From an uncultured Pseudomonadales bacterium (GTDB lineage: Bacteria > Patescibacteriota > Microgenomatia > UBA1400 > PJMF01): 64,000 nt of DNA. A program made the translations under genes and the position numbers. Below are positions 44,456 through 64,000 of this stretch, in pieces. The first letter of the stretch is position 1. Each line of letters begins with the position of its first letter. The stretch lies in assembly GCA_964393205.1 (NCBI GenBank), contig CAYMSV010000002.1, forward strand, positions 160,843 through 224,842. The letters are read 5' to 3'. The notes beneath the pieces are model-generated. The model did not search any database and was not told the DNA's origin. It saw nothing but the letters and a program-made list of their open reading frames with translations.

Positions 44456-44462
44456 AAATTTC

Positions 44463-45041: not shown

Positions 45042-45188
45042 TTAAGCTTTTTTAATTACAGTTAGTTTTTTGCGTTTTTTCGCTCTACGTCTAGCTAAAG
45101 TTTTTCGTCCTCCTAAAGTAGACATTCTTTTTAAAAAGCCGTGCATTCTTAAGCGCTTCTTTTTTTTAGGATTCCAGGTTCTTTTCAT
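45042..45188 (-). CDS. rpmH: 50S ribosomal protein L34
   Basis: Not in the ORF track (under 60 aa). The hand translation is [48 protein letters not shown], a canonical L34. Confidence 0.8.
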
Positions 45189-45209
45189 AAGCGATTATTA
45201 TAACATGAC

Positions 45210-46717: not shown

Positions 46718-48226
46718 CTACTTAGAAATAGCCACTAAAGACATTTTTAAGGCAGAAACATCTTGAATGGTTGTTTCGTCAACTAAAAGTTCTTTTTCAA
46801 TCTTTTTAACTGCGTGAATGACGCTGGTGTGGTCTCGACCACTAAACCACTGACCGATTTCTTCAAGAGAGCTATTTAGTTCTTGTCTTAAAAGGTACAT
46901 AGCAATATGACGAGCTCTAACTAACTCTTTATTGCGTCTACCACCCTTAATAGCACTTTGTTTGAGGTGAAAATGATTGCTAACACTTTGAATAATATCT
47001 TGAGGTTTAACTTTAAGCATTTTTTTATGATTTTGTCTAATTTCTTTTTTAAGAATTAAATCAATTAATTCAACATTGATTTCTGCTCCCTGTAATTCAA
47101 CGGCACTACGAATTTTTTTGATAATTCCTTCAATTCTTCTGGCACTGTCAACTTGAGCTGCAATTCTTTGAGCTAAATGATTGGGAATATTGATATGATT
47201 TGATTGAGCCTTGAGTAATAAAATTGCAGTGCGAAGCTCTAGGGTTGGTTGTTGAATATCAATCATTAGACCAGCTTCAAAGCGCGAGCGAATTCTGTCT
47301 TCCAGCAAACTAATTTCATGAGGAGGAAGGTCGGAGGTTAAAATAACTTGTGAGTTGTTTCCAGTTAGAGCATTAAATGTATGAAAAAATTCTTCCTGAA
47401 CACTTTTTTTACCAGCAATAAACTGAATGTCATCTAAGAGTAATAATTCAGCTCTTCGATATTTGTTGCGAAATTGAGCTGAATTTTTATTTTGAATGGA
47501 TCGAATAATTTCATTAGTGAATTGCTCGCCGGTACAAAAAACAATGTTGGTGTCTGGATCATTTTTTAATATGTAATTGGCGATAGCGTGCATAAGATGT
47601 GTTTTTCCTACACCAACACCTCCATATAGAAAGAGGGGGTTGTAGCTTGAGCCGGGACTGCTAGCGACTTTGGTAGCGGCTGCATGAGCCATTTGATTGC
47701 TAGGATCAACAGCAAAATTATTAAAGGTAAAATCATTCTTAAGACCAATTTGTTTTGCTCTTAAATTAAACCTGTCAACAGCATTATTTTCAATATTTGA
47801 ATAAGAAAAGAGCTCATCTACCGTGGGAGAAACGAGTTCTAGACCATTAGTGCTTTTATCTGTTTTTTGAGACTGCTTTTTTTTAGAATTCAAACGTTGG
47901 TCGGTTTGAACAAAACTATTATTTTGTTTTTCTGTTTTTTTACTGTTACCTACTACAAAGTTTATTTCCAGCGGTCTGTTTACGTATTTTTCTAAGGCTG
48001 TTTTGATTGGCAAATAAAGATTAGATTTTAAATTAGTTGCATGAAACGCAGTCATGCAATTAATGGTTGCTTCAGCTTTTAATTCATCAATAACTCGTAA
48101 TTGAGTGAGTGGGCTGGGGAGAATCCAGGTATTAAAAATTGCTGGACTTAAGCTACTTTCCAGATCGTTTTTAGCCATTTGCCAAATTTGTTCAATGGTT
48201 TGAGAGTCATAAGCTTGTTCTGACAT
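46718..48226 (-). CDS. dnaA: chromosomal replication initiator DnaA
   Basis: AAA+ Walker A 'LFLYGGVGVGKTHLMHAI', sensor regions, and a C-terminal domain IV 'RNKELVRARHIAMYLLRQ'. Confidence 0.95.
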   Translation of the reverse strand: MSEQAYDSQTIEQIWQMAKNDLESSLSPAIFNTWILPSPLTQLRVIDELKAEATINCMTAFHATNLKSNLYLPIKTALEKYVNRPLEINFVVGNSKKTEKQNNSFVQTDQRLNSKKKQSQKTDKSTNGLELVSPTVDELFSYSNIENNAVDRFNLRAKQIGLKNDFTFNNFAVDPSNQMAHAAATKVASSPGSSYNPLFLYGGVGVGKTHLMHAIANYILKNDPDTNIVFCTGEQFTNEIIRSIQNKNSAQFRNKYRRAELLLLDDIQFIAGKKSVQEEFFHTFNALTGNNSQVILTSDLPPHEISLLEDRIRSRFEAGLMIDIQQPTLELRTAILLLKAQSNHINIPNHLAQRIAAQVDSARRIEGIIKKIRSAVELQGAEINVELIDLILKKEIRQNHKKMLKVKPQDIIQSVSNHFHLKQSAIKGGRRNKELVRARHIAMYLLRQELNSSLEEIGQWFSGRDHTSVIHAVKKIEKELLVDETTIQDVSALKMSLVAISK

Positions 48227-48330: not shown

Positions 48331-50526
48331 TTATTTTGGAGCTTGGTAGTCGTCAATTGAATAAGCAAAATGTTGTTTATTGTTTGATTCTTCAGCCCGT
48401 GTATTTTCTGCTTGGTCGGAATTTTTGTTTTGATTTTCAATGTTTGTGTTTTGAGGTTTTTGTTGTTTATAATTTTCACCATCAAATATATTTTTAATCT
48501 GAGGCAATACCGGGTTTTGTTTTAACTTATTTTCTGCTTTTTGTTTTGCATTTTCTAAAACATCTTTTGTAAAATCAAGTTTTTCTCCTTGCCAAGGAAT
48601 TTTGTTTGGTTTATCAAAAGAGCCAACTTTTTCTTTTTGAGCTTCTGTTGACGAGCTTTGTTCAAGTCTTTGACGACGCAATTCTCTTTCAGCATTAGCT
48701 TGTTTTTTTTGACTTAAAATTTCTTCTGGATCAGTGGTAATTACTTGATGTTCTTTGTCAGAAGCAATTACTCGCAGCGCCACATGATTTTGTCCAGCAA
48801 AAAAGATTCCTTCACCAACATCTGATGTGACTAAAAGTTGTCTTTCACCTTCAGATAGATAAAAAGTTTGGGCTAAAAGGGGGACTGAAGATGTGGATTG
48901 TTTCATCAAAAATTGAATGGAAGAGTTCGAAACAATGGCTCGTCCATAGTCGTTACGTAAAAAGTCTTCAACGTCTTGGGTGATAGTAGTAATTCCCAAA
49001 TAATATTTACGTGCTCTTTTAACCATTGAATAAACAAAAGCTGAGCTATCTTGATGCATCATAAAATACCAGGCTTCATCAATAACCAAAATACGCCTTT
49101 TAAGATCTTTTTTAATTTTTGTCCAGATAAAATCAAGAATTACATACATTGCAATTGGTCTTAATTCTTCTTCCATTTCTTTAACACTGAATACGGTAAA
49201 AGGTGACTTAATATCTATGTTAGAAGCTTTGTCAAAAATACCACGAAAAGAACCGGTAATAAATTTTTCTAAGCGAGCAGCTAAATCAGCGCTTTCATCT
49301 TGTTCCATGCCAATTAAGGCTTTATAAAGATCTTCCATTAACGGAGGAGTGTTGGTTTGAGTATTTGGGTCTGGGGTTATGCCTTTAGCCTTATAACTAG
49401 CGACAATAGCACGATCTAATATAGCCTCTTGTTGAGGAGTCATTTCACCCAACATTACTTTTAACAAACCATGAAGTGAAAGAATTTTTTGTCCCAGTTC
49501 GTTTTCGCCCTCTTCATACAAATTAGATAGGTCAAAGGGGTTAATTTTAGCTTTCGAGCCGAAAGTAAAATTAATATATTCTCCATCAACCATTTTGCAG
49601 AGTTCTTCATATTCGTGTTCTGGATCTAAAACAATGATTTCTGTGTCAAACATTAGTTGTCGCAAAATTTCTAGCTTGACTGTATAAGATTTACCAGCTC
49701 CAGATTTAGCAAAAATAACCATGTTAGCGTTTTCCATCTTAAAGCGATCAAATATTACCAGAGAATCGTTATGTTCATTAATTCCATAAACAATGCCTGT
49801 TTCCATAGTTAATTCTGAGGAAGTAAAAGGAAAAGTTGTAGCTAAAGAGGTGGTATCCATGTTTCTGGTAACGAGTAGCCGGTCTACACCCATAGGAATG
49901 GTCGTTTTAAAGCCTTCGTCCATTTGTAGAGCTGATTTCTTAGAGACGATTAATAAAGACCCTAGGGCAGACTGAATGGCCTTGGTGGTTTTTTCCAATT
50001 GTTCTCTGCTTTCGCTCTTAATAGTGACATATAAACTAAACTGAAAAAATCTTTCTGATCCAGCAGCAAGTTGCTCACGCATCACTCGAGCGTCATTTAG
50101 TTTAATTTCGGTATTAATATTACTAATTTTACCCGCTCTAACATCAGAGGTAATTTCCGCCTCCATTTCAGTAATTTTTCTTTTTAAATTATCTAAAATT
50201 TCACTAGTATCAGAGGGAAAAATAAACATCGAGATATTGGCTTGGGTGGGAAAGTTAATTAGTGGGGATAGCCAGTTAGCGGGAACACTTCTAGGATAGC
50301 CAGCTACGAAGAGAGTTCTTGTGTAGGTGGAATTAATTTTTTGATAGGTAAAATCAACTTCAATTGCCTCTGGAGCAATAATATCTTGAATGGTAACAAG
50401 ACCTCGGGAAAAATCTCTCAATTTTTCTTGGGTATATTGTTCTGCATCGATCTGTTTTTGCTCCACAGGATCAGCGTTGGTTTTTTTCTTATTAATAAAT
50501 GGTAGGTTAAAATCTAAAATTGACAT
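48331..50526 (-). CDS. type IV secretion system ATPase VirB4/TrbE/TraE family (monoderm-type)
   Basis: Walker A 'VIFAKSGAGKSYTVK'. Walker B 'RILVIDEAWYFM'. The N-terminal region 'YTRTLFVAGYPRSVPANWLSPLIN' is typical of Gram-positive-type VirB4. 731 aa. Confidence 0.85.
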   Translation of the reverse strand: MSILDFNLPFINKKKTNADPVEQKQIDAEQYTQEKLRDFSRGLVTIQDIIAPEAIEVDFTYQKINSTYTRTLFVAGYPRSVPANWLSPLINFPTQANISMFIFPSDTSEILDNLKRKITEMEAEITSDVRAGKISNINTEIKLNDARVMREQLAAGSERFFQFSLYVTIKSESREQLEKTTKAIQSALGSLLIVSKKSALQMDEGFKTTIPMGVDRLLVTRNMDTTSLATTFPFTSSELTMETGIVYGINEHNDSLVIFDRFKMENANMVIFAKSGAGKSYTVKLEILRQLMFDTEIIVLDPEHEYEELCKMVDGEYINFTFGSKAKINPFDLSNLYEEGENELGQKILSLHGLLKVMLGEMTPQQEAILDRAIVASYKAKGITPDPNTQTNTPPLMEDLYKALIGMEQDESADLAARLEKFITGSFRGIFDKASNIDIKSPFTVFSVKEMEEELRPIAMYVILDFIWTKIKKDLKRRILVIDEAWYFMMHQDSSAFVYSMVKRARKYYLGITTITQDVEDFLRNDYGRAIVSNSSIQFLMKQSTSSVPLLAQTFYLSEGERQLLVTSDVGEGIFFAGQNHVALRVIASDKEHQVITTDPEEILSQKKQANAERELRRQRLEQSSSTEAQKEKVGSFDKPNKIPWQGEKLDFTKDVLENAKQKAENKLKQNPVLPQIKNIFDGENYKQQKPQNTNIENQNKNSDQAENTRAEESNNKQHFAYSIDDYQAPK

Positions 50527-51650
50527 TAAAGTTCCACTGGACCCGGTTCATTTTTATTTAATATTTGATTGGTTGAGTTTGGTGGCATTGTTTTTTGATT
50601 TAAAGTGTTGTCTTGGGTATTTAAATCTGTTTTTTTGGTTTCATCATTTGCTTGTAAACTCTGTTCTTGCTCGGGATTCGTTGTTTGTAAATGAACAATT
50701 TCTTCGCTAAAGTTTGGTGAAGGGTTTATTTGTAATTTTAAATCCGCTATTTTGTTTAAATCTTGAGAAACAAATTGAGTTTTTTTATTTGGCTCTTGAT
50801 TACTTGTTTGATTTTTTTTTGAGATCTCTTCATCAACAGTTATTGATTGAGGTGTTTTAGTTAAAGTGGGAGTTTCGCTTGGTTCAATATTTAGCTCTGG
50901 TGCGGGTGTTGGTGCTGGTGCTGGTGCCTGATTAACGACTTGATCCATTTCGTTAAAATTTTGATTACTTGTCAAACTAGCTCTAACCATAGGAGTCGTA
51001 TAACTCTCGCTATTGGTAACTTCTTGACCTTCTGTCGACTCTGGATTGTAATTGATGTAAAAATTTTGAATAATTTCTTGAGTGTCTAGTTGTCTAGCAA
51101 ACAAGCCAATTCTATTAAATTGAGCAATTAAATGATCTCTACGAGGATCTAATATTGTAGAGGCTTTTTCAATTAGAATGGTTTTTTCAAAATTATTAAT
51201 ATTAAATTTAGTTTTACCAGGTAAAACACTTTCCGCAGTATAAAGACCCATTTCTCCAGCATTGGTAGGAATAACTACAAAAAATTTTTTTTCTAAAACA
51301 TTTCTCTCACGAATTAGATTGGCCACGAATTCTCGGTATTCTTCAATTAATTTAGCTTTTTCTCTAGATTTGGCTTGTTTTGCTTGGTTTTCAAGTAGTC
51401 TTAGATATCTTGTTGCATCTTTAATATTAGACTGAATGTTAATTTGAATGGGAAAGTTAAGAGAATTAAGCAGGGCACCATAGGTATACATAATGGCGTC
51501 TTGTTCTTGCTCTGCTAACAGACTAAAGTTCATGGTGCCTATTTGCATAATGATGGATATTACACCATCTTTAAGAATTACCATGTCGTTGGTAATATCA
51601 TAAACATCAAGAAACTCTTGTGTGGTAGAACTAATAGTGTTGTCGCTCAT
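50526..51650 (-). CDS. T4SS-associated protein; N-terminal ~150 aa resemble the non-ATPase N-domain of VirB4/TrbE; Q/P/T-rich tail
   Basis: 'FLDVYDITNDMVILKDGVISIIMQIGTMNFSLLAEQEQDAIMYTYGALLNSLNFPIQINIQSN'. TAATG overlap with VirB4 suggests translational coupling. Confidence 0.4.
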   Translation of the reverse strand: MSDNTISSTTQEFLDVYDITNDMVILKDGVISIIMQIGTMNFSLLAEQEQDAIMYTYGALLNSLNFPIQINIQSNIKDATRYLRLLENQAKQAKSREKAKLIEEYREFVANLIRERNVLEKKFFVVIPTNAGEMGLYTAESVLPGKTKFNINNFEKTILIEKASTILDPRRDHLIAQFNRIGLFARQLDTQEIIQNFYINYNPESTEGQEVTNSESYTTPMVRASLTSNQNFNEMDQVVNQAPAPAPTPAPELNIEPSETPTLTKTPQSITVDEEISKKNQTSNQEPNKKTQFVSQDLNKIADLKLQINPSPNFSEEIVHLQTTNPEQEQSLQANDETKKTDLNTQDNTLNQKTMPPNSTNQILNKNEPGPVEL

Positions 51651-51704
51651 GAGTCTTGTTTAAGTTTACTAGATTTTGACCCTTAGTAAAAGAGTCTTAA
51701 TTTT

Positions 51705-52658
51705 CTAATCAGCAATAATTTCTATTGTTGGTACTAATTTTCCAGTCAATCTAATGCTTAGTGGGGTAAATATTAAATCCTCTGCTTCGGTTTTAATTAA
51801 ATATTCTCCGTTAGGGAGTGCTGTTTTAATATAAAATTGACCAGCAGTATTAGTTTTAATGATGCGTAAAGCTTGGTTCTGATCGGCAGCAAATACTTCG
51901 ATCAAAGCGTTTTTAACTCCTTGACCACTTGTATTCTTTACCAAGCCAACTAATTGATTAGCTTGTTGTGCTTCTAATTTATTATTACCTTCGTTTTTAT
52001 TTTCTGAAGTGACTGGTTCTTTGTTCGCTTCCACTGTGTTTTGTAAGTTGTCTTGTGCATTTTTTTCCCGAACTTCTTCTAAATTTTTTAGTTTACGAAT
52101 TCTTGTTTTTAATTGTGGTTTGTTTCTTTCTTGTTCTGGTTTAACGGAAATATTTTCAGCTCTAACTTTAACCTGATCATAGTTGGCAATAAGATCTTGA
52201 GTTTTTTGTTTGTAATGATAGTCCCAGTCATCAAGTTCTTCATCATTTTCTGGAATACTCTTTAAATATTCTTGAATGCGTTTTTTTCTAGCAGGTGAAT
52301 AATTAACCTCTGGATTAACTTCAAGATTTTGATTTAATCCTGGTTTATAGTTAAAGAAATCAGGAACCTTTGGAGTTCTTTTCCAAAAAAATTTAGTAGG
52401 TTTCCAAAGATTTTTAAAAAAAGTGACGATCCAAAAATCAAGAGGTCTCTCTTCTATGGGGACGAAGGCAATCATAATTGACAATAAAACTATAAAAATA
52501 AATAAAGGCCATCTAACTACGCCAATTAGATTACTTTTATAAACAATAAAAGCAATGAGTGCTCCAACTGCTAGTTCGGCAAATTGTTTAAGGGTCATGC
52601 TACCGATTAGATGGAATTTATAACCAGTGATGTCTTGAGGAATTGGGTGTTGTTTCAT
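51705..52658 (-). CDS. VirB3-like two-TM protein fused to a C-terminal prealbumin-like (CarboxypepD_reg-like) beta-sandwich domain
   Basis: Two N-terminal TM helices ('LAVGALIAFIVY', 'WPLFIFIVLLSIMIAFV') precede VirB4, as in Gram-positive T4SS. The C-terminal segment 'GVKNALIEVFAADQNQ...TNTAGQFYIKTALPNGEYLIKTEAEDLIF' is prealbumin-like. Confidence 0.4.
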   Translation of the reverse strand: MKQHPIPQDITGYKFHLIGSMTLKQFAELAVGALIAFIVYKSNLIGVVRWPLFIFIVLLSIMIAFVPIEERPLDFWIVTFFKNLWKPTKFFWKRTPKVPDFFNYKPGLNQNLEVNPEVNYSPARKKRIQEYLKSIPENDEELDDWDYHYKQKTQDLIANYDQVKVRAENISVKPEQERNKPQLKTRIRKLKNLEEVREKNAQDNLQNTVEANKEPVTSENKNEGNNKLEAQQANQLVGLVKNTSGQGVKNALIEVFAADQNQALRIIKTNTAGQFYIKTALPNGEYLIKTEAEDLIFTPLSIRLTGKLVPTIEIIAD

Positions 52659-53062
52659 AAGGACAGTTTGTTTGACTGATATTCAAAGCGCTCGCTTTTA
52701 ATATCACCAAAACCTTTTTCATTTAACCATATTTCTAGTGCTTTTTCTGTAGCGCTTAAACCGAGGTCTGATTTAATTATAAAGCCACCAGTTTTATATG
52801 AATACTGAATGTTGAAGTCGGGTGTGGTAACAGGAGTAATGTTTTTTAGTTCAGTTATTAGGCGTAATTGTTCTTCTTCATTTTCACTCAACATTGCTTC
52901 ATCAACGGGAAAAGCGTCTCTAAGAATTATTTCTTCTGGTTCTTTTGTTGGTGGGGGAGTTGGCACGATTACTTCCTCTGCTCTTTGTTTTGCAAACAAA
53001 ATAATTAATAAGATTATTATAAATAAAGTAATAATAAAAATGATTCTGATCTTTTTTTTCAT
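52655..53062 (-). CDS. small N-terminally anchored extracytoplasmic protein (T4SS operon)
   Basis: 135 aa. TM helix 'IIFIITLFIIILLIILF' plus a PTPPPT linker. ATGA overlap with the downstream gene. Confidence 0.35.
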   Translation of the reverse strand: MKKKIRIIFIITLFIIILLIILFAKQRAEEVIVPTPPPTKEPEEIILRDAFPVDEAMLSENEEEQLRLITELKNITPVTTPDFNIQYSYKTGGFIIKSDLGLSATEKALEIWLNEKGFGDIKSERFEYQSNKLSL

Positions 53063-53064
53063 AA

Positions 53065-56000
53065 TTAATTTTTTATTAAATATAGATGTCTAATATAGCT
53101 GTTGTCGGTACCCGAAGTTAAGCCTTCTCCAGAAGTAGACACAACTTTGTGGGTAACATTTTCTCCCCACCAAGGATCATAAGCTGTTAGATAGCCAGGC
53201 TCTTCAACACAGGTAATAACATAATAGTGGCCAAATCCACGAGTGTGGGTGAGAGCAAATAAAAGATTGCCTTCCGCCAAATAATTGGCCAATTCGTCAG
53301 TAATTTGACCAGGGCTGCCAGTGGGTGTAGGTACGGCGGTCGCGCTGACTCCATTATTACTTAGGGTGCTAATAAGGGGGGACAAGGCTGTACCGGCACA
53401 GCTAGTGGCACCACAGCCTCCTGGTACCAAATAACCTTCTCTAGTAGACATTGTTATTGGATCTTCATTGAGGATCATGGCAATGCTGACTGGTCCACAG
53501 GAAGAAGAACCAAAACTACAACCGCCATTACAAATCATAATATTGTTATAGGCTTTTTGGCTATAATAGGTGAGGTTGCCAACGACAACATCGTTACAAA
53601 AAACTGCACTGCCTCCACCACCAAGGCTTCCGCCGGTAGGAAATTGAGTTAAAAAAGCGCTGTTTAGAGTAGTCTGATAAATAAGCATGCTTCCGGCCGC
53701 TAAGCCAAAAGCGGTAAGTACTGCTTGACCAGCGGTAACCATAGCTCCAGAGCCAACTTCAGCTAAGCTAGCTCTAGCTCCAGTTAATTGAGTGCCTCTT
53801 GCTTGTATTTCGCTAGCAGAAACTCTATTTGCTAATTGACCAGCTTCTGAACTCAAGGGTTGAGTAATAGAGTTAGAAGCTTCAGCTTCTAGCGCACTAG
53901 ATAAAATATTGTTTTTTGCAAAAACACCTGTCCCTGTATTGCCAGAAAACAAATTTTTAAAAAAAGATGCAGCTTGTATTCCTAATTTTATGAGAATGCC
54001 TAAAAGTGTGCCTAAAAAAGCAAGTATTGCTAATATGCTTGCAGCTAAAATTTTTAAGAGAGGCTCCAATTTCTTTTTTATTTCACCCCAAGCTATTTTT
54101 TCAATCATTTGCTTGATTGGCTCGGGCAAAGTTTCAAAAGCTCCACCGGTAACATAATCTAACCCAGCTCGAACAGCTTTTTCTCCTAAAAAATCAATTC
54201 CTTTGTTGGCGAGATTTTTTATGCTTTCAAAACCCTCTTTAAGTTGAGATTCAACGGCACCTTCTTCATTAAATTGTCTGACAAAAGGGTATTGTCCATT
54301 CTCGTCTGGACCAAAAGCCTGATTATAATTAATAGCTCCTAAATCATAAGCAGAAAATTGGGGTAGGCTGCTTGATTGCAAATATATATTTTCAACTAAA
54401 AATTCTTCTCGTGGGAGATAGTAGTGTAGGGTGGCTGTTTGTGCCCTAGTCCCACTAATATTAATAACGTCAAGAAAAGTTTGTTGATAAACTAGTCTTA
54501 ATTGTCTGAGTTTTTGATTTTGTTCATCACTAAAAGCATTAAAATTAATCTGATTTTGAGGAAGACCAGCCAAGGTTTTAGTAACGACATCTGCATCGAT
54601 AACATTTAATTGAGATTGTTGTTTGAGTTGTTGAAAATATATGGTTTGTTTTTGTATCGATTTTTTGTCCTTGCTGACAAGCACATCTTCTGCTTCAATT
54701 TTTTCAATATCTTCTGGGCTGTAAATTTCATTAGCAATACCCTCATGAATAGATTGACTCCATTCCGCTCTTTGTGTGCGCCAATAACTAGCAAGCAAAT
54801 CTTTAATGGCTTGTTCGTTAGCTAAAAAAGTATTTTGACTGATAAATTCTTGGCCAAAATGAGCTTGAAAGCGTTGCCAATCAAAACGCTCAATATAATC
54901 GACGGGATAATTTTGTTGAATAAAGGTATCTATGATTGGCAGAATATTTTCTTGTGCAAAGAAAGATTTTTCCAGTCCTCTTTTGTCATCAGCGACAATT
55001 TTTTGCCATTCACTAAGAAAACTCTTTTTGGTAACCCTAGTAAAGCTTTTTCTTATATTTTTTAAAAAATCTTTTTTAAAATCTGCTTGAGAGTCTAATT
55101 TCTTAAAAAATAGCTCAGCCTCTTCACTAGATAAGTTCTGTAGTTGTTCTTGAAGTTCGGGTGGTAAATCTGTAGCATTGATATTTAGTTTTTGGGCTAA
55201 TTGTTCTTGAGTTAAAGCTTGATCTTGATTTTTTTCTAATTGGGCTTGAATTTCTGTTTTATCTTTGTCACTGCTAGTTAAGCTACCGAGTTCTGTGGCA
55301 AAAAGTTGCCCACCCCTGATATCAGTCATTACTTTCAGCGCTACATCTTTGGAAAAGCTGATTCTTTGGGATGGATTATTAATTAAATCTTCTAAATCAT
55401 AGCGGCCACTAGTAAAAAGATTTTCAATTTTACTAAAGCTAATTCCCAATAATTGTTGTCTAGTTTCTAGCGATAGTTGATTAAAATTAGGAATTTGCTC
55501 AAAACCCATTTCTGTCAGTTGTTCTTTCGAGAGATTGGCAAATTGAATTTGTAAGGATTGATTAATGGAAATAATAGCTAAAGAGCGAATATAAAGTTTA
55601 GAGCGATCATCGAGGCGAGCTAAATTAAATTCACTAGAAAAATCTTCGGGAAGGTTTTGTTTGATTTTTTCAGTTTTTTGTTCTTTGTCGGTGTCGTCTC
55701 CGTATTCTTCTGAAGTTTGTTGAGAACTGATGGGTTGTTTTTTATCTTGCGTAGAAGAAGTGGGAGTCTTTTTATCAATTTCCTCTTGAGAATCTTTGGT
55801 TTTTAAATTATCTTCTTGTTGTTGCTCAATGATCTTAATCATTGGTTGAGCTAAATCGGTATTAACTTTTTGCCATAGAGAGAAAGTTTGTTCCAATTTA
55901 CTTAATTCTTTGAGCAAGATTTGATCAGAACCAGGTTTGCTAGCTAGGCCGATGCGGTTAAAAAAATCTCTACCGAGTTTTGCCAAGGCTTGCTTGCCGT

Positions 56001-56412
56001 CCTGATCAATAAATTTAGCTAGTTGAAGGTTGCTTTGTTCTAAAAAAGCAATAAGGTCGCTCAAAAAAAGACTGTTTTGTAAAATTTGATCTTTTTGTCT
56101 ATTTAATTCATCAATAATCTTTTTTTTCTGTTCAGAGTTTATTGCTTTATCTTGAGTGACATCGGCTATTAGTTTTAATTGGGTTTCAATTTTGCTTGCT
56201 TTTTGTAACCTAAAAGTTTTTCCACTAAAACCCCTGACTAAAAATGGCAAATTAAAGCTTTTGCCAAACTTTTGAGGAAGATCTTGATTAAAGAAGTTTC
56301 CACAAAAAGAGATGATGATTTTTAATTCATCAAAGTTAAGATTGTTTTGACTAGCTAGCTGTTTGAGTTCAATACGCAAACTACCATGGTCTTGATCAGC
56401 CATAACACTCAT
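53065..56412 (-). CDS. large bitopic protein: ~860-aa cytoplasmic Q/E-rich domain, TM, extracytoplasmic C39-like papain-fold cysteine peptidase domain (candidate cell-wall hydrolase of the T4SS)
   Basis: TM helix 'ILAASILAILAFLGTLLGILIKL'. Cys motif 'CGPVSIAMILNE' and His motif 'GFGHYYVITCVEE', as in C39/C39-like peptidases. Confidence 0.5.
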   Translation of the reverse strand: MSVMADQDHGSLRIELKQLASQNNLNFDELKIIISFCGNFFNQDLPQKFGKSFNLPFLVRGFSGKTFRLQKASKIETQLKLIADVTQDKAINSEQKKKIIDELNRQKDQILQNSLFLSDLIAFLEQSNLQLAKFIDQDGKQALAKLGRDFFNRIGLASKPGSDQILLKELSKLEQTFSLWQKVNTDLAQPMIKIIEQQQEDNLKTKDSQEEIDKKTPTSSTQDKKQPISSQQTSEEYGDDTDKEQKTEKIKQNLPEDFSSEFNLARLDDRSKLYIRSLAIISINQSLQIQFANLSKEQLTEMGFEQIPNFNQLSLETRQQLLGISFSKIENLFTSGRYDLEDLINNPSQRISFSKDVALKVMTDIRGGQLFATELGSLTSSDKDKTEIQAQLEKNQDQALTQEQLAQKLNINATDLPPELQEQLQNLSSEEAELFFKKLDSQADFKKDFLKNIRKSFTRVTKKSFLSEWQKIVADDKRGLEKSFFAQENILPIIDTFIQQNYPVDYIERFDWQRFQAHFGQEFISQNTFLANEQAIKDLLASYWRTQRAEWSQSIHEGIANEIYSPEDIEKIEAEDVLVSKDKKSIQKQTIYFQQLKQQSQLNVIDADVVTKTLAGLPQNQINFNAFSDEQNQKLRQLRLVYQQTFLDVINISGTRAQTATLHYYLPREEFLVENIYLQSSSLPQFSAYDLGAINYNQAFGPDENGQYPFVRQFNEEGAVESQLKEGFESIKNLANKGIDFLGEKAVRAGLDYVTGGAFETLPEPIKQMIEKIAWGEIKKKLEPLLKILAASILAILAFLGTLLGILIKLGIQAASFFKNLFSGNTGTGVFAKNNILSSALEAEASNSITQPLSSEAGQLANRVSASEIQARGTQLTGARASLAEVGSGAMVTAGQAVLTAFGLAAGSMLIYQTTLNSAFLTQFPTGGSLGGGGSAVFCNDVVVGNLTYYSQKAYNNIMICNGGCSFGSSSCGPVSIAMILNEDPITMSTREGYLVPGGCGATSCAGTALSPLISTLSNNGVSATAVPTPTGSPGQITDELANYLAEGNLLFALTHTRGFGHYYVITCVEEPGYLTAYDPWWGENVTHKVVSTSGEGLTSGTDNSYIRHLYLIKN

Positions 56413-56478
56413 TATAGACAGAAATTTAGTCAGTGACTAGGCAAAAAAAAATAAAAATAGTATAATTTAACCATCAAC

Positions 56479-58725
56479 ATGAACATAAATAGTGAGTTTT
56501 CACCTAAGAAGGGTTTTTTTAGAGAAGTAGATAAAGGTGGGGGTGGTGGTGGTGGTGGTGGTGGAGGTAAAGATGATGAGGGTGAATCTAGTAGCAACAA
56601 CGAACAAGAAGATGCTAAAGGAGCAACAATGAAAACAGAAAAAGAAATCTTAGACAATGTTTTACCAATTCTAGGAGCTGACATCAAAAAAACAGCTCAG
56701 TTAATTGACGACCTTGAAGCTGAAGCAGCCATTGAGGTGCTAGAGCAATCTCGAGACTTAGCTATGTGGTATAAAACTTCTTCTCCTAAAGAAACAGCAG
56801 CATTAGCTTTTCTTAAAAAAAAGTTAGAAGAAAAAGCTGCAGAATTAGGTTATTCTTTTGAAGATGAATTGGAAGAAAGCGAGGGGAGTGTAGGGGGTGC
56901 AGAAAGTGTAGAGAGTGCAGAAGATGGAGAGAGACCTTCTTGGCAAACAAAGTTTGATCGTTTATGGGACGAGTTGCAAGATACCTATAGGGAGAGAGCT
57001 AGTTCTAATCCAGACATTCGTGATTTAACTTCACAACTCACTGAAATTGTTGAAGAACATTTTTCTGAAGAAGAAAAGAGGGCTTATAGAAGAACTCTAT
57101 TAATGAGAGATGTAGCTAACCCCAATGCAGTCTTTAGGCATTTGTGTACTGAAACACCTGAGGAAGCTCGAAAAAAATCTTATCTTAATGAAGCTCATGA
57201 ATTAAGAAAATATATGGATTTAGAAAATGTTTTTGGAGTGTCCATAAAAGAAATCGTTGACTATTTAGAAACAGATGCTTTTGATAATATTGAGCATAAA
57301 ATAACGAGGGGAGACGGAAGTATTGGTGTATTTCATTGGGATTATGCTGCTAATGGTGATCCGGAAGAAGAGCTTTATGCTCCAAGAGAAGATGATGGAA
57401 CTATTGATTTTTCGGGTTTTCCAAATGAAGGAGACGTGATTCCTGATGAGGAGTGGAAGGGGAAAAAGGCCCTAACTCTTCAAGAGTTGATTGAAAATAA
57501 ATTTCCAAAATTAAAAGAAATTCCTAAGTTTGTTTCCGATTCTTTAATAACCTTTGTTATAGTTTCTGAGCTTAGGTATCATAAATTTTATCCATATTAC
57601 AACTATTATCAAAACTCTCCTATTAATGGTATGGATGCCGGTGCTCTTTTACCCTGGGGTATACCAGGCTATTTGGGCTATAAGGCTGCTTCGATTCAAA
57701 AAATTCCTGGATATAGCTCGATTTTGATGTTAACGAGACATCCTAATGAAGAAAAGTTAAAAGAAGTTAATGACTTTGAAGGTACTGACGAGGAGATTGA
57801 AGATTCTATAAATGCCGAATACAGGACTATAAATTTTGAAGAGGACTGGGCGAGAGGGCGCTTTATTTTTAAGAAAAATGACAATGGCGTTGTTGAAAGA
57901 AATCATGGCAGACGTATTAGGGAACACGAATATGTTGAAAATCGTAATGAAAGTTTTGAAGGTGATAGTTTATATGATAAGACATCAAAAAAAAAGAGAT
58001 TTGATAAGGCTCTAGAGAACAGAGAAATAATGGTTATGGTGAGAAATGCTCTTTGCTGGATGTTTTCTCCAGACGTAGATTTTGGTTCGGTTACTCTTAA
58101 TCCTGACATGCAATTGCTACCCAGCCCTTGGAATGTGATTAAGGGTAAATGGAGAGGTGAGTCTATTAACATTACCTTAGATGATCTTTTTGAAGTTTAC
58201 GATCAATTTAATAAATTTGCTGAAGAAATAGATAACGTCCCAAGCATAACTCAGCCAATGCAGGCAATGACTCTACTCTCAGATTTAATAAGCAATACTT
58301 CTAGGTTTAAGGTTATCTTTGGTAAATTAAATAAACCCGTTTTTCAAGAATTATATGATCTCGTTGGATTAATGTATATGTTTTATCTTAAGAAATTATT
58401 TGATCAATATATGAAATTGCCAAAAATGAAGGGTTTGTCTTATGCTACAACCCCAAAACACATGGTTTTTGCTCAAGAGGTAATACATGAGGTAGAATTT
58501 GACAGAACTCTGCCGCCGTTTATCAAAGAAACCATTGTGAAAGCCATGAATCAATTAGGCGTTGTCGCAGATGGAAAATGGGGAGTTATATTCTCTCCAC
58601 CAACTGCGGAAGATGAAACCCCTCTATTTATTAGATTTCAGCAGCTCGTTGGTTCTGGTTTTGCTCAAAATTTAAATCGTTGGCTTAAACCGGCTAGACC
58701 TGAAGAAAAAGATCCAAATCAATAA
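56479..58725 (+). CDS. hypothetical acidic cytoplasmic protein with Gly11 run (embedded antisense in the T4SS-like locus)
   Basis: 748 aa, D/E-rich, no TM helix. It has the Gly run 'GGGGGGGGGGG'. No known motif. Confidence 0.45.
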   Translation: MNINSEFSPKKGFFREVDKGGGGGGGGGGGKDDEGESSSNNEQEDAKGATMKTEKEILDNVLPILGADIKKTAQLIDDLEAEAAIEVLEQSRDLAMWYKTSSPKETAALAFLKKKLEEKAAELGYSFEDELEESEGSVGGAESVESAEDGERPSWQTKFDRLWDELQDTYRERASSNPDIRDLTSQLTEIVEEHFSEEEKRAYRRTLLMRDVANPNAVFRHLCTETPEEARKKSYLNEAHELRKYMDLENVFGVSIKEIVDYLETDAFDNIEHKITRGDGSIGVFHWDYAANGDPEEELYAPREDDGTIDFSGFPNEGDVIPDEEWKGKKALTLQELIENKFPKLKEIPKFVSDSLITFVIVSELRYHKFYPYYNYYQNSPINGMDAGALLPWGIPGYLGYKAASIQKIPGYSSILMLTRHPNEEKLKEVNDFEGTDEEIEDSINAEYRTINFEEDWARGRFIFKKNDNGVVERNHGRRIREHEYVENRNESFEGDSLYDKTSKKKRFDKALENREIMVMVRNALCWMFSPDVDFGSVTLNPDMQLLPSPWNVIKGKWRGESINITLDDLFEVYDQFNKFAEEIDNVPSITQPMQAMTLLSDLISNTSRFKVIFGKLNKPVFQELYDLVGLMYMFYLKKLFDQYMKLPKMKGLSYATTPKHMVFAQEVIHEVEFDRTLPPFIKETIVKAMNQLGVVADGKWGVIFSPPTAEDETPLFIRFQQLVGSGFAQNLNRWLKPARPEEKDPNQ
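56539..56568 (+). repeat. (GGT)n trinucleotide microsatellite, ~10 units, in-frame (poly-Gly)
   Basis: ggtgggggtggtggtggtggtggtggaggt. Confidence 0.8.
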
Positions 58726-58780
58726 AAAAGATAGCAAAATGGAATGGGGTGTTTTAAAAATTTTAAAAAAACTAAAATTA

Positions 58781-60523
58781 TTATTTTTTGTTTTTACCAA
58801 GTACTCTGTTCATTAAATCAATAGAATCCTCAACTTCTTGTTTATGTGTGGCTCTTTCTCTATTTTTTCCAGTCGCAAATCCTTTACCAATTGAGAGTTT
58901 TCCTGGTTCTCCCCCCGGAGTCGTAGGTTTAGTTTTAATTGGTAATTCACCAGTATCAATAAAATGAGTTACTGGGTTGAGTATGTCTGGTTGGTTAAGT
59001 CCCGCAGAGTGTTCTACATTAATTGCTGTATTTACTCCAGTATGAGCTCCTTGTTTCACACCGGTGCCAAATCCTTGTATAATACCTTTGCCAATTGATC
59101 CAAAACCGCCTGATACATCTCCCATTCTCATTTGACCAATAGCTTTAGGTATGTTTTTAAATCCTCCGCCAATTGCGCCAATTGGTCCTCCAGCAAGGGC
59201 GCCAGTTGCACCAAGTCCAACTCTACCACCTAACGGAAAGGCTTTTTTAGTTCTTTCTATGGCCGCTCCTGCTAAGCTACCCATAATTCCTTCTTCCACT
59301 CCAAGTTTCTTTTTTGCCTCTTTCATAATTTCCGGAATAGTTAATAAAATGCCGATGGCTACCAAAGCTGGAAAAGCAGCTCCCTGTCCTTGTCCTAATA
59401 GAAATGGTGGCATAAAACCACCAACCTGTGTTCCTGTGCCAACATATTTGCCAGTTGTGAGCATACTATTAACTAGCAAGCAAATCAAAACTAGTGGCCA
59501 CATAATTAAATTGCCAGTTAGATTTTTTAACCAAGACACGAAGGTATTTTTTCCTGGAATAGCGCCGACCATTAATATGACTGGTGCAAAGACTATTTGC
59601 AAAATAATTGCAATATAAGACTTCAATAGTTCAAAAAAGATTTTAAAACTACTAAATAAAATCGCTAAACCAATGATGACGATGGCAGATAGGGAAGACA
59701 ACCAAGCAACAGCGGTAGATAGCCAACCAGTGCCCAACAAACCGCTTATTAAATTTCGCAGGGTGTTTCTAACATCATTGCCAAAATTATCAAACATCCT
59801 GCCAATCAGGTTAAAAATATTACCTGTAATTAAAGTGGTTTCGCCCCCAATTAAGGTAGTTAACATGTACATTAATAAGTACATTAGATCAATCAAAAAA
59901 CCAGCTATCGCATAGGAAAAAGTGACAGCCAACATTGCTACAATGATGCTGGGAATTGCTTGTTGAACTGTGATTGCAGCTTGACCAATTTTAGCTCTAA
60001 ACATAATCATAAAACCAATTATCAAAAAAATAACTACAAAAAATAAATAGGCAACATTGCGAAAATTTTTCCAAGTTTCAAGAATAGGGTCTAGTGCAGC
60101 AAAACCAAGTCCTTGTGCCTGGGCTTGGGGCATAATTTTAGCGTTTTGTAAAACGTCAGCTACGTAAGTTACTGAACTTGCGGGAGGGTCATACATAGCA
60201 ACAATGCCGCTGTTTACAACACTGATTAGTCCAGAACCAACAGCCTCATTAAACATGCTGGTTTCACCATCCATTTCTTCACCTCCACCCATAATATGGA
60301 GGTTAATAACGTTAAGTAGGTTGGAGGTAGTTTCTGTAACATGTTTTTCACCACTAACTCCCTCTTCAACTAAACTTGAAGCCATATTGGTAGTTGCTTC
60401 TTTAGCACTAAATTGAGTTTTTAGCCAATCCCAAACACTAGCTTGAGCTGGTTTAGTTACTAGAGACCAGGTTAAGAAAAAAGTAATGATAAATATAACA
60501 AATCGAGAAATAGCTTTTCTCAT
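58781..60523 (-). CDS. VirB6/TrbL-like polytopic membrane protein with Gly-rich C-terminal tail
   Basis: Signal peptide '...KPAQA|SV', a ~140-aa extracytoplasmic domain, at least 6 TM helices, and a Gly-rich tail 'GGPIGAIGGGF'. This is the VirB6 topology. Confidence 0.5.
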   Translation of the reverse strand: MRKAISRFVIFIITFFLTWSLVTKPAQASVWDWLKTQFSAKEATTNMASSLVEEGVSGEKHVTETTSNLLNVINLHIMGGGEEMDGETSMFNEAVGSGLISVVNSGIVAMYDPPASSVTYVADVLQNAKIMPQAQAQGLGFAALDPILETWKNFRNVAYLFFVVIFLIIGFMIMFRAKIGQAAITVQQAIPSIIVAMLAVTFSYAIAGFLIDLMYLLMYMLTTLIGGETTLITGNIFNLIGRMFDNFGNDVRNTLRNLISGLLGTGWLSTAVAWLSSLSAIVIIGLAILFSSFKIFFELLKSYIAIILQIVFAPVILMVGAIPGKNTFVSWLKNLTGNLIMWPLVLICLLVNSMLTTGKYVGTGTQVGGFMPPFLLGQGQGAAFPALVAIGILLTIPEIMKEAKKKLGVEEGIMGSLAGAAIERTKKAFPLGGRVGLGATGALAGGPIGAIGGGFKNIPKAIGQMRMGDVSGGFGSIGKGIIQGFGTGVKQGAHTGVNTAINVEHSAGLNQPDILNPVTHFIDTGELPIKTKPTTPGGEPGKLSIGKGFATGKNRERATHKQEVEDSIDLMNRVLGKNKK

Positions 60524-60616
60524 ACAAGGTATATTTTAATTGATTGTGACGCCATGTGTAAAGTGAAGTTTTTTTGCGCTTGACAATCTATCAAAGAATA
60601 TTTAACAATATCAAAG

Positions 60617-61501
60617 ATGATCGATCAAAACCAAATAGTTCGTTTATTAGAGTTTTTCTCTACGAGCGAAAGAATATTTTTTTTATTTTCTAACAGTCAA
60701 CAAAGGGATTTGTCTTTAAGCGCTTTAGCCAGTCATTTATTTTTTGAGGATTTAATTTCATTAAATAAATCAAAATTAAAACTAAAAGAAACAGTTGTTT
60801 TTTCTCCAAGTAAACTGACAGAGTCATTTAAGCAGTGGCCAGAAATTAATAACTATTTAAAACAAAATAATTTATTAGAAAAAATTCAACATGATTTGGG
60901 CAGAGAAAATTTATCAATTGTTTTTCCTTATAAAAAAAACCAAGTAGATAAAGTTTCTTATCATATTGATGACAAGGCCAAGCGCTTCTATTTAAGTATT
61001 AAACCTAAAAAAGGTGTTGCTCCATTAAGTCAAAAAGAAGTGGAATTTTCTTATACTGGTTCTAGTGCTGACTTATTAATTTTATTTGGAGTTAATGATT
61101 TAGAAGACCTCAAAGAATTATATTTTGCTCATGAAGAACTTTATCAAAACACCTCTTTAGTAACAGTTAACACTTTTTTACCAGACTTTGGTACTCTTAA
61201 TTTAGATATTAGTGGAAGCATTGGCTATGGCGAAGCAACTTTTTATTTATTAAAAAGCCTGACCAATTTCTTAGATATCGAATTAAGCTCTTTTACTCAT
61301 ATTGAGCAAATTACTACTTTGTTGTTGACGGGTATTAGTTTGAAGACAGATCAATTTAGCAGTAAACAAATGACGGCCAATAGCTTTTTAGCAGTAGCTG
61401 AATTATTGCAATTAGGCGCTCAGCGCTTAGAACTCAATAAGAACGAGATTACTAAACATAAACAGAAAAAATCTACAGCACACAAAAAATCAAAAAAGTA
61501 A
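60617..61501 (+). CDS. hypothetical cytoplasmic protein with basic C-terminus
   Basis: 294 aa, no TM helix. It ends 'KHKQKKSTAHKKSKK'. Confidence 0.35.
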   Translation: MIDQNQIVRLLEFFSTSERIFFLFSNSQQRDLSLSALASHLFFEDLISLNKSKLKLKETVVFSPSKLTESFKQWPEINNYLKQNNLLEKIQHDLGRENLSIVFPYKKNQVDKVSYHIDDKAKRFYLSIKPKKGVAPLSQKEVEFSYTGSSADLLILFGVNDLEDLKELYFAHEELYQNTSLVTVNTFLPDFGTLNLDISGSIGYGEATFYLLKSLTNFLDIELSSFTHIEQITTLLLTGISLKTDQFSSKQMTANSFLAVAELLQLGAQRLELNKNEITKHKQKKSTAHKKSKK

Positions 61502-61517
61502 AAAAATCCAAGTTTAA

Positions 61518-64000
61518 CTATTGGTTATACATAATAATAGCAGTAGTTAAGACTCCGAGCCTTTGGAAAAGTGGATATTTATTGGTGTTTCCATTAGTGT
61601 CTGTAGCATTACAGACAGTTCCTCCGCCGTCTTTAAAGCAAAGTCTAATCGCTCTCTCTACAAAATCATCAGTAGGGTAGCGACCCATAACGTCAAAATA
61701 GCGATTTCTAATTTTTTCGGCATCGTCTGTATTAGATGGTCGATTACAGGTAAATTCAACTGTATCCATGCAAAAAATTAAATCCATTTCTTGATGTCTA
61801 TCATCGATCCAGTTAACTGGATAAATATGGTCATCTCCTTCCATACTAACTGGACAATATCCAGCCAAACGCCAACGAGTTGGTCTTTCTTGGCCAGTAT
61901 AATCTGAGGTGCAGTTGCCATTACCGGGGCCGTTATAGCGGGCCAAACCCATTAACAAGGTTTCATAATCCAATTGCACCTGTTCTGGTGGTAAGCCGTT
62001 CATACCCATTTTATCTTTTAAGTGTTCCATGGCGATAGTAGCATCTTCCAATAAACTACCGCGCAGAGGACCGCCATCCAATAGTGATTGATCTGGACTC
62101 ATACCACCCTCCATCCAGTGAATTCCCGCAGCAATTTCGCAAGGTATGCCTGTAGTAGCTTCTACTTGCCCATAGACGTCTATTAACTCTGAAGTAACTT
62201 TTGGAACAACATATGCGCTGAAGTCGTTTAAAGCAATTTCTGGTATTTCTTCATAATTGGGTAGTCCTTCAACTTTGCTAAAAGCTAAACCCTCGCAAGT
62301 TGCCTCTAGTTTTCCTTGAGCTCCTTTACAGCGACCTAAAAATAAATCTTCAACTCGCTCACAGGATGCTACATATTCATAGGCATCATCGGCAGTACTG
62401 CGAATAGTTGTTTGTATTTTTCTAATAAACCAACCAAGACCAAAGTCAGGAAACAACAGGCCATGTTCTGGACGACCTGCTGTAGTGACGCCAAAGGCTT
62501 TATCATCACAAACTTGTATATAAACTGGATTGCCCAAGGCATCTACAGCTCCATCGGGATCTGGCTCTAAACGACAATTAGTTTGCCAGCTAAAACCGTC
62601 ACTATCGCTATAAGCCGCATTACTATTCTTAATAGTGTAATATTTAGGAATAGCTCCAGTTTTACCCTCCATATCTACCAAAACGTTATTTTTTATCAAT
62701 TGAAAAAGAGAATCTCTGTTCCAAAAAATACCCAGAGATTTATTAACATCTTTTACGTTTTCTCCAATTGGTAAAACCAAATATGCTTTAACCTGGACTT
62801 TTTCTCCAGCATCAACAATTGGATTACTTACGGTGATGTCCCAAGAGAAATTAGTTTCTGCTTCACTATCTAATCGATCTAATAACTCATTGTTAAGTGG
62901 ATTGTTTTTATAAGGATTACGAGCAGTATCATCAAAATATTTTGTAGCGGGAGTGAAAAGATCTCCAGCTTTTTCAAAATGTATATCATTGGTGTTGACA
63001 ATATCTTCTACGGTAATTTCAGTTTCTGGGTCTTCCAAATCTATAATGCTTACAGCTTCAACTGAACAAGAAGGTTCAGCGCCATTAATAATATCAATCA
63101 GAGCATTTTCTAACATATTGTCAGAGCTTCGTTCGCATTGAGGCATGCCAGCACACTGAATAGTTTTTTCTGATTCAGGCCAAGAATTTGCTTTAGCTGC
63201 TGCACCAATCAACAATTCTCTTTCCCAATTTTGATTATCAAGATCTTGAACATTTTGTGCATGATTTTGTAGAACAAGTTTAGTTAGTTCTAAACTATCT
63301 ACATTATTTAAAATTCGTGATTTATTAGTGGCGAATTCAGGAATTTTAAAGGCAATAAAGATTGGAGCATCTTTTTCATAAGATCCGCCATCTGTTTGTA
63401 AAAACTTTAATTTATTATTAACAGGAGTTTGTTTGGGTACGAGTACCAAAAAGGCCAAACGATAAAGATTGTCTAAATCAAAACTAACTTTTTGAATTGC
63501 TGCTCGGTTGAGAGCTAAAGTTTCAGCTAGAGCTGGACTTTCTTCCTCTGGATATAAGTCTTTACAGATGGCTGAATTTCTTTCAGATCTACTAGCACCT
63601 GCCAAATCAGGCCTCATATTATCCAAACGCTCTTTGATCCCCAAGTAATCAAAATTAGCACTGGGAATTCCTAGCGAAGCATTGGCTTCGATTTCAACTT
63701 CTTTGTTTAAAAAACAGTTGATAAAAAATTTGTCGCATAATTCTCCAATGACGTCTAAATTATTTTTTTTATAAAAACATTGCCAATAAGAACTTAAAAG
63801 GCGTCCTGTTATTCCAGTAGCATTTAAATAATCATCATCGGTGAAAGCCTCTTGTAAGTTAGCGCCAAACATACCCTCAAAAGAGTCGTTTTTATCGGTA
63901 GACTCACTATCTTCCATGCCACGTAGCAGGGGGATTCTAGCGTTTTCTAAATTAAGATATTGGGGGCTGGTGCCACTAAAATATCTAAGAGTATTAGGAA
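61518..64000 (-). CDS. Cys-rich acidic protein with SLT-like lytic transglycosylase motifs (VirB1-like candidate); 5' end beyond window
   Basis: The frame stays open from the ORF-track M (63917) to the window edge. 'IAAGIHWMEGGMSP' (ES-type catalytic Glu) and 'LMGLARYNGPGNGN' (AYNAGPG-like) are about 80 aa apart, as in SLT domains. More than 25 Cys. Confidence 0.45.
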   Translation of the reverse strand, partial: PNTLRYFSGTSPQYLNLENARIPLLRGMEDSESTDKNDSFEGMFGANLQEAFTDDDYLNATGITGRLLSSYWQCFYKKNNLDVIGELCDKFFINCFLNKEVEIEANASLGIPSANFDYLGIKERLDNMRPDLAGASRSERNSAICKDLYPEEESPALAETLALNRAAIQKVSFDLDNLYRLAFLVLVPKQTPVNNKLKFLQTDGGSYEKDAPIFIAFKIPEFATNKSRILNNVDSLELTKLVLQNHAQNVQDLDNQNWERELLIGAAAKANSWPESEKTIQCAGMPQCERSSDNMLENALIDIINGAEPSCSVEAVSIIDLEDPETEITVEDIVNTNDIHFEKAGDLFTPATKYFDDTARNPYKNNPLNNELLDRLDSEAETNFSWDITVSNPIVDAGEKVQVKAYLVLPIGENVKDVNKSLGIFWNRDSLFQLIKNNVLVDMEGKTGAIPKYYTIKNSNAAYSDSDGFSWQTNCRLEPDPDGAVDALGNPVYIQVCDDKAFGVTTAGRPEHGLLFPDFGLGWFIRKIQTTIRSTADDAYEYVASCERVEDLFLGRCKGAQGKLEATCEGLAFSKVEGLPNYEEIPEIALNDFSAYVVPKVTSELIDVYGQVEATTGIPCEIAAGIHWMEGGMSPDQSLLDGGPLRGSLLEDATIAMEHLKDKMGMNGLPPEQVQLDYETLLMGLARYNGPGNGNCTSDYTGQERPTRWRLAGYCPVSMEGDDHIYPVNWIDDRHQEMDLIFCMDTVEFTCNRPSNTDDAEKIRNRYFDVMGRYPTDDFVERAIRLCFKDGGGTVCNATDTNGNTNKYPLFQRLGVLTTAIIMYNQ

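Follow-up and report, generated by a model that had tools for sequence, protein, structure and literature searches.

A large protein with a predicted C39-like papain-fold domain heads a chromosomal type IV secretion operon of a Woesebacteria-type bacterium and is a candidate cell-wall-remodelling subunit

The window considered here, a stretch of 64,000 nucleotides (nt) with a GC content of 33% (contig CAYMSV010000002.1 of assembly GCA_964393205.1, positions 160,843 to 224,842), carries on its minus strand an open reading frame (ORF) for a protein of 1115 amino acids (aa), which is the first gene of a type IV secretion system (T4SS) operon. On balance, we think it probable that this protein is the cell-wall-remodelling (VirB1-analogous) subunit of a chromosomal MPF-FATA-like T4SS of an ultrasmall Woesebacteria-type bacterium belonging to the candidate phyla radiation (CPR). 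The ORF and its parts are as follows.

53065..56412, minus strand: whole ORF, 1115 aa and stop, first gene of the T4SS operon, uninterrupted from ATG to stop
54073..56412, minus strand: N-terminal domain (N-domain), aa 1-780, Q-rich, all-alpha, presumed cytoplasmic
55651-55812, minus strand: low-complexity acidic linker, aa 201-254, 27% mean identity
53977..54060, minus strand: transmembrane (TM) helix 1, aa 785-812 (LLKILAASILAILAFLGTLLGILIKLGI), preceded by KKK, Kyte-Doolittle value 2.55
53758..53976, minus strand: variable S/A/T/Q/G-rich linker, aa 813-885
53635..53757, minus strand: helix 2 and its motif, aa 886-926 (…MVTAGQAVLTAFGLAAGSMLIYQTTLNSAFLTQFPT), containing GxxxG
53068..53613, minus strand: Peptidase_C39_2-like papain-fold domain (C-domain), aa 934-1115 (~182 aa)
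53557-53559, 53497-53499, 53227-53229 and 53176-53178, minus strand: predicted catalytic codons of Gln952, Cys972, His1062 and Asp1079, respectively

The ORF, for which the initial annotation had given no strand, is real. A word-indexed search of 5.8 billion proteins returned 16 relatives in total, and the ORF is not a product of chance, as 15 of them span all or almost all of it (query coverage 87-100%, identity 43-85%); the mean column identity in the alignment of these homologues is 64%. The genome matches are CPR/Patescibacteria metagenome-assembled genomes (MAGs) labelled Woesebacteria or Paceibacterota, with some bulk submissions labelled "Pseudomonadales", and the members of the family cluster are named "hypothetical protein [Candidatus Woesebacteria bacterium]", the sole annotation in Woesebacteria MAGs. 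The full-length protein has no match in Pfam or NCBIfam. An exhaustive hidden Markov model search with the family profile against 1.84 billion representatives gave 123 hits.

The C-terminal ~220 residues had been proposed to form a C39-like papain fold, on account of CGPVSIAMIL and GHYYVITC, which begin at aa 972 and aa 1061. The folded domain proves to be shorter (aa 934-1115), and when isolated it aligns with positions 4-143 of the 143 of the PF13529 (Peptidase_C39_2) profile at 15.4-15.5 bits (E 0.026-0.028); all 16 C-domains of the family match this profile weakly (best E 2.5e-4), and the match to PF03412, Peptidase C39 proper, has an E of 0.29 (11.4 bits). The family profile also found about 90 small proteins, of ~170-740 aa and mostly 250-420 aa, which align (E 1e-10 to 5e-4) with profile positions ~955-1094 only. 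Nine of the ten nearest small relatives tested score above the PF13529 cutoff (25.7-38.9 bits), and the family fragment P0019 and the relative P0022 bear a precomputed PF13529 assignment. Judged by its sequence, the C-domain is a sub-threshold member of PF13529, linked to it transitively. Its conservation is among the highest in the protein (67% mean pairwise identity). A PHROGs scan with the C-domain and its relatives gave no match, and sequence searches of the PDB with three profiles (A1, A2 and A6) gave a short match of the GH…DP hairpin to papain-like toxins and nothing else. Plasmid and phage collections, searched by tblastn with the C-domain as well as with the N-domain, held no match; none of the known plasmid T4SS or phage lysins is thus closely related.

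The fold was also looked for by structure prediction. AlphaFold2 modelled the domain (as part of aa 880-1115) with a predicted local distance difference test (pLDDT) value of ~90 across aa 934-1115, and a Foldseek search of the PDB with this model retrieved solely papain-like proteins (probability ~1.0, E 1e-4 to 1e-2). Among them are C39 domains, namely those of PCAT1, of ComA and of a double-glycine-motif protease that belongs to an AMS/PCAT transporter (6mpz); others include the pseudomurein endoisopeptidase PeiR, Alr0975, staphopain and two kinds of papain-like toxin, CdiA-CT and PAAR-linked. In BFVD the best matches (E 1.6e-4 to 5e-3) are proteins of cyanophages that go by the names lysozyme, endolysin or peptidoglycan-binding. 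In an alignment of 94 sequences Cys972, His1062 and Asp1079 are present in all and Gln952 in 93, and these are the sole universally conserved polar residues; the four are likewise invariant in the 55-sequence alignment A6. The model puts Cys972 at the first position of a helix, His1062 within a beta-strand and Asp1079 at the end of the next strand, which supports a Gln-Cys-His-Asp placement as expected for a papain fold. The weak PF13529 match throughout the family, the model, its Foldseek matches and the conserved tetrad together bear out the C39-like assignment. The single best PDB match of aa 934-1115 is 22oc, a 2026 entry named "P210 CD lyase" (E 1.5e-4) that we could not trace in the literature and that might hint at a non-hydrolytic reaction.

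The genes of the operon, all on the minus strand, lie close together (no gap or overlap exceeds 54 nt), and the 1115-aa gene is the first of them, since the gene upstream of it is divergent; its place as first gene of a VirB3/VirB4 operon was thus correctly called. The 135-aa ORF follows after a gap of 2 nt and the PrgI/VirB3-like gene overlaps that ORF by 4 nt. The downstream genes of the operon are:

52655..53062, minus strand: 135-aa ORF, N-terminal TM anchor and ~90-aa ectodomain
51705..52658, minus strand: PrgI/VirB3-like protein (PF12666, E 4.2e-6, 27.6 bits, cutoff 27)
50526..51650, minus strand: TrsD/TraD-like protein (NF041427, E 2.6e-6, below cutoff)
48331..50526, minus strand: VirB4-family ATPase, CD1110 type (NF045971, E 4.6e-116, 388.9 bits, cutoff 325; PF19044, E 1.1e-25)

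About 20 more distant large relatives (1190-1410 aa) have the same N-domain, TM1 and helix-2 motif (…TAxQAV…YQxxLNSAFLTxFP), and the motif is followed in them by a Cys-rich beta-domain and then by a Peptidase_M23 domain ending in …TCYE. All seven that were tested match PF01551, five of them above the cutoff. At three metagenomic loci these M23 forms occupy the same slot of the cluster, beside a VirB4 that is 73-74% and a dnaA that is ~65% identical to those of the window. M23/LytM and papain-like peptidases are the two classic types of peptidoglycan endopeptidase, and a wall-hydrolase role of the 1115-aa protein is supported because the M23 orthologues occupy the same syntenic slot; the analogy to Gram-positive T4SS wall hydrolases, drawn in the initial annotation, is thereby strengthened. 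Diversity is far greater among the M23 forms than among the C39 forms, so that the simplest view of the C39-like head is that of a derived, lineage-specific replacement, the hydrolase head having been exchanged from M23 to C39-like on a conserved chassis.

We therefore favour, with moderate confidence, a membrane-anchored and T4SS-dedicated peptidoglycan peptidase or amidase, whose activity is predicted. In such a protein the 780-aa helical N-domain would stay in the cytoplasm and dock to the base of the T4SS (VirB4, TrsD or PrgI), as its position and the precedent of PrgK suggest, TM1 would hold the protein in the membrane, and the flexible linker of ~75 aa, helix 2 and the Gly hinge (aa 927-933) that directly follows helix 2 would display the C39-like domain outside the membrane. 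There, Cys972 and His1062 would locally cut peptide or amide bonds in peptidoglycan stems or cross-links, and the opening in the wall would permit the assembly of the channel and of a VirB2-like pilus. The C39-like module would be a lineage-specific substitute for the beta-domain and M23 metallo-endopeptidase of the more widespread relatives in the same slot.

VirB1 proteins of Gram-positive bacteria are held in the membrane by an anchor, their N-domain lying inside the cell and their LytM, SLT or CHAP domains outside, and PrgK, the VirB1 of pCF10, has extracellular LytM, muramidase and CHAP domains behind its intracellular N-domain and TM anchor (PMC12857230). With PrgK (pCF10), TraG (pIP501) and Orf14 (Tn916), representing classes DELTA, ALPHA and BETA, the window protein shares a site beside VirB3 and VirB4 in an MPF-FATA-type operon and the succession of N-domain, TM anchor and wall-hydrolase-type module, with intracellular and extracellular sides that are predicted in its case, and the M23/LytM-bearing orthologues of its family echo the LytM domain of PrgK. 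It differs from all three in that its catalytic module is Peptidase_C39_2-like, in its unrelated N-domain of ~780 aa and in the extra invariant helix at aa 886-926. By its sequence, the 1115-aa protein is outside the known VirB1 families.

C39-like domains have been catalogued as catalytic modules of phage lysins (PMC3314691; PMC8223927). Compared with PF13529 proteins of clan CA, such as the secreted CPR-type proteins P0047 and P0052 and domain N5 of mycobacteriophage LysA, the C-domain has the fold and the order Gln…Cys (at a helix N-terminus)…His…Asp in common, and it shares the YYxQ, CGP and GH…DP motifs and the pair Cys965/Cys1005 with the small proteins and endolysin modules. These relatives occur mostly in extracytoplasmic or lytic settings. 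The window domain, however, is divergent, has two extra Cys pairs and forms the C-terminus of a giant T4SS membrane protein instead of lying behind a signal anchor or in a lysin.

The homology of the 135-aa protein in other genomes begins at about aa 47, and its conserved C-terminal ~90 aa are 72-82% identical across C39-type genomes, whereas M23-type loci have an unrelated 327-aa anchored protein in this position (at 13656-14639 of locus L011); the small downstream gene thus co-varies with the hydrolase head, and the 135-aa anchored protein may be a regulator, an inhibitor or a partner of the hydrolase. We rejected the idea that it is a VirB2 pilin, as it has a single N-terminal TM and the true pilin array lies elsewhere (31243-34266). 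A C-terminal module that differs by lineage (C39-like or M23) on a constant N-terminal chassis, together with a wholly different next gene, could also be read as a host-directed lytic enzyme or effector, the tethered or released C39-like domain attacking the host wall, and not remodelling the producer's own, at the contact between epibiont and host, for uptake or delivery by the T4SS or a pilus; on this view the C-terminus that varies and the downstream gene that varies with it would look like a polymorphic toxin and its immunity or inhibitor partner. The long and flexible linker would suit this, the delivery of effectors to hosts has been put forward as a role for the T4SS of Patescibacteria (PMC11665869), and the closest solved folds and motifs include papain-like CdiA-CT and PAAR-linked toxins (8ssk/8ssm and 9l5u). 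With these toxins (9l5u being PAAR/DUF4150-linked) the domain shares the fold, the GH…(Y)DP(W/Y)xG His-Asp hairpin motif and the C-terminal position on a large carrier. The carrier in the window, however, is a protein of a T4SS operon with a strong TM anchor, not a CDI, T6SS or Rhs delivery module, and no secretion or trafficking domain was recognised in it; the gene is single-copy, vertically conserved and placed inside the machinery operon, outside any variable toxin cassette, and the downstream gene, whose immunity role is putative, is itself well conserved across C39-type genomes. We regard the host-directed reading as rather unlikely.

The N-domain accounts for 70% of the protein; its mean pairwise identity is 58-67%, and in the family alignment many of its Trp, Phe and Tyr positions are invariant. 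It had been described as long, Q/E-rich and coiled-coil-like; it is indeed large and Q-rich (10.8% Q, 7.8% E, 8.7% K), but a coiled coil is not established, and the AlphaFold2 full-length model, of moderate quality (mean pLDDT 57), contains helices alone, mostly of 10-30 residues, with pLDDT 70-85 for aa ~265-550. Among the 1.84 billion representatives the domain is limited to about 35 large proteins of its own family, and it has no match in Pfam, NCBIfam, PDB sequences, PDB folds (Foldseek with the moderate model) or, by tblastn, plasmids and phage collections; a PHROGs scan gave one meaningless match of unknown function (E 0.0026). A Walker-type ATPase, considered from reading the sequence only, was dropped, no match to a P-loop family being present. 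The N-domain looks like a conserved all-helical orphan domain with one acidic linker. Its size and conservation would also fit a structural or regulatory scaffold of the T4SS, in which the hydrolase-like domain binds peptidoglycan or partners but is not itself the active cutter of the wall and the N-domain does the essential work, for example by replacing VirB8-, VirD4- or VirB10-type scaffolds. The type IV coupling protein (T4CP), VirB8 and VirB10 were not recognised in the cluster by Pfam and NCBIfam scans, and the LytM and CHAP domains of PrgK have been described as regulatory (PMC12857230). We nevertheless find a scaffold quite improbable, as the conservation of the four catalytic residues across the 94 sequences and the 67% identity of the C-domain argue for retained catalysis.

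The protein begins with a hydrophilic N-terminus (MSVMADQDHGSLRIELKQ…) and, as initially stated, has no signal peptide; together with the KKK cluster that precedes TM1, this makes a cytoplasmic N-domain the expected arrangement. TM1 is the sole strongly hydrophobic helix (summed Hessa-scale dG -2.7 kcal/mol); of the 16 close homologues, 15 have a negative dG for it and P0010 has +0.3. The initial annotation had placed a single TM after ~860 residues: one strong TM stands, but it lies at aa ~785-812, and the weak helix at aa 886-926 was probably mistaken for it. The linker between the two helices (aa 813-885) has 30% mean pairwise identity, against 60-74% in the flanking segments, and an AlphaFold2 pLDDT below 30. 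Helix 2 is weakly hydrophobic in the window protein (Kyte-Doolittle 1.4, dG +3.7 kcal/mol; +2.0 to +4.3 in the close family) and has a pLDDT of ~25 in the full-length model.

The cysteines of the C-domain also point to a side of the membrane. Cys965 and Cys1005 occur together in 88 of 94 sequences and are both missing in five, and they form a putative disulfide, to go by this covariation. Two further Cys pairs are extra and family-specific: Cys939 and Cys1068 occur only jointly, and P0015 lacks exactly C961 and C1000. Zinc binding by the CxxxC…CxxxxC cysteines was considered and rejected in favour of disulfides, as these residues come and go two at a time. Of the 84 complete small relatives, 72 (86%) carry a signal or anchor at the N-terminus. 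Because of the M23 swap, these signal-anchored relatives, the covariation of the Cys pairs and the dG of helix 2, an extracytoplasmic C-domain is favoured.

Several points weigh against an anchored wall hydrolase with its catalytic domain outside. Papain-fold enzymes also include proteases, acyltransferases and toxins. Of the Pfam families suggested for checking the C-terminus, Peptidase_C39_2 was found, though below its cutoff (15.4 bits in the window protein versus 24), and CHAP and NlpC/P60 were not; the Pfam and NCBIfam scans of the window protein gave no match to SLT or muramidase domains either. No relationship of the N-domain to PrgK, TraG or another known T4SS part is detectable. No segment of the protein is better conserved than helix 2 (73.6% mean pairwise identity), which contains GxxxG and in the most distant relatives is clearly TM-like (dG to -2.2); if it spans the membrane, the C-domain is cytoplasmic. 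These relatives with a TM-like helix 2 also show an additional hydrophobic segment after TM1. Helix 2 is a candidate second TM, re-entrant helix, partner-binding element or processing site, and its residues M891, T893, A894, Q896, A897, V898, Y912, A919-T922, F924 and P925 are invariant even in P0016, which is 25% identical. Across the superfamily its motif, TAxQAV…GxxxG…YQxxLNSAFLTxFP, ranks first in conservation.

A hairpin of TM1 and helix 2 would turn the protein into a cytoplasmic processing protease that cuts the leaders of T4SS substrates or pilins before export, as the C39 domains of PCAT and ComA do. Besides the invariance and the TM-like relatives of helix 2, this reading can draw on PCAT1, ComA and 6mpz among the top fold matches (6mpz, 7n87 and 5xe8 at E ~1e-3) and on an array of potential substrates in the window:

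31243-34266, plus strand: VirB2-like pilin array, seven small ORFs of 113-186 aa, six of the seven matching PF18895 (T4SS_pilin, E 1e-10 to 3.5e-5)

However, the six VirB2-like pilins examined have ordinary Sec-type signal peptides and none a double-glycine leader, and the match to PF03412 is poor. The domains of that family share the papain-like fold, but they are cytoplasmic and N-terminal to an ABC transporter, whereas the window domain is C-terminal and without an ABC partner (no ABC-transporter domain was matched among the scanned cluster ORFs, 48331-63917). The M23 domain of the positional orthologues, a wall endopeptidase type, the signals or anchors of most of the nearest relatives, the disulfide-like covariation and the positive dG of helix 2 in the close family likewise speak against processing, which we hold to be highly doubtful.

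The family could also be a so far unrecognised trans-envelope T4SS subunit peculiar to Microgenomatia-type CPR bacteria, in which the orphan domain would replace VirD4-, VirB8- or VirB10-like proteins, helix 2 would insert into or gate a second membrane or the translocon, the M23 or C39-like head would be matched to the wall chemistry of the host and the downstream anchored protein would be a dedicated inhibitor. This seems improbable to us; if true, the exchangeable hydrolase head would help to determine the range of hosts open to the epibiont.

To return to the anchored wall hydrolase, the T4SS is essential for epibiotic growth in the sole genetically tractable Patescibacteria species, where its role has been called "completely unknown" (PMC11665869). 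A phylum-wide survey found VirB1-type hydrolases sporadically, in most classes not closely tied to virB4, suggested other enzymes for the role and does not mention C39 (PMC12102498). The C39/M23 family is a concrete candidate for this missing VirB1-type component, and if the hydrolase reading is true, it adds a Peptidase_C39_2 module to the known repertoire of T4SS-associated wall enzymes. The small size of the 182-aa domain and its confident model put a direct test of its bond specificity within reach, and the orphan N-domain of 780 aa and helix 2, which is invariant, offer handles on the build of an atypical T4SS.

The wider neighbourhood comprises the following features.

39447-48226, minus strand: origin-region set of dnaA, dnaN, rnpA, yidC, jag/KhpB, RNase H and a DUF4012 protein of 1015 aa that has a single TM
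56479-58725, plus strand: 748-aa gene, divergent, poorly conserved
58781..60523, minus strand: 580-aa protein with about seven hydrophobic segments
60617-61501, plus strand: 294-aa gene, kept in the five loci reaching the region
61518-63917, minus strand: 799-aa gene, kept in the five loci reaching the region

VirB4 is followed downstream by dnaA, dnaN, rnpA, yidC and jag, and this typical origin-region gene set shows the T4SS cluster to be chromosomal and origin-proximal. All six CPR genomes compared (L001-L006, 55-85% identity) have the same order of genes between the large protein and dnaN, and in three of the loci, those with enough contig on the upstream side, the full order can be followed (799-aa gene, 294-aa gene, 580-aa seven-TM protein, a variable gene, the large protein, the small anchored protein, PrgI, TrsD, VirB4, dnaA, dnaN). 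Neither a relaxase nor a T4CP was recognised among the cluster ORFs scanned with Pfam and NCBIfam, so that the system, chromosomal and near the origin region, is not evidently conjugative, in contrast to those of PrgK, TraG and Orf14. The locus fits the published MPF-FATA-like, origin-proximal (dnaA-adjacent) and relaxase-poor T4SS of Patescibacteria, of which TrsD is the commonest component (PMC12102498).

Similarity to the 748-aa gene was not found in L003, L006, L009 or L011, and the 748-, 294- and 799-aa genes have neither a family nor a PDB match. The 580-aa protein, also without a match in Pfam or NCBIfam, is kept upstream in every locus whose contig reaches there (52-91% identity); it is a candidate analogue of VirB6/PrgH, a translocon subunit that reportedly is "scarce" in Microgenomatia. 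At its C-terminus the PrgI/VirB3-like protein has an additional beta-sandwich of CarboxypepD_reg-like type (aa 236-292, E 2e-5, below cutoff), an extension that is unusual for VirB3 proteins. The pilin array lies ~14 kb from virB4 and adjoins the gene of an ECF-type sigma factor (30638-31201, minus strand).

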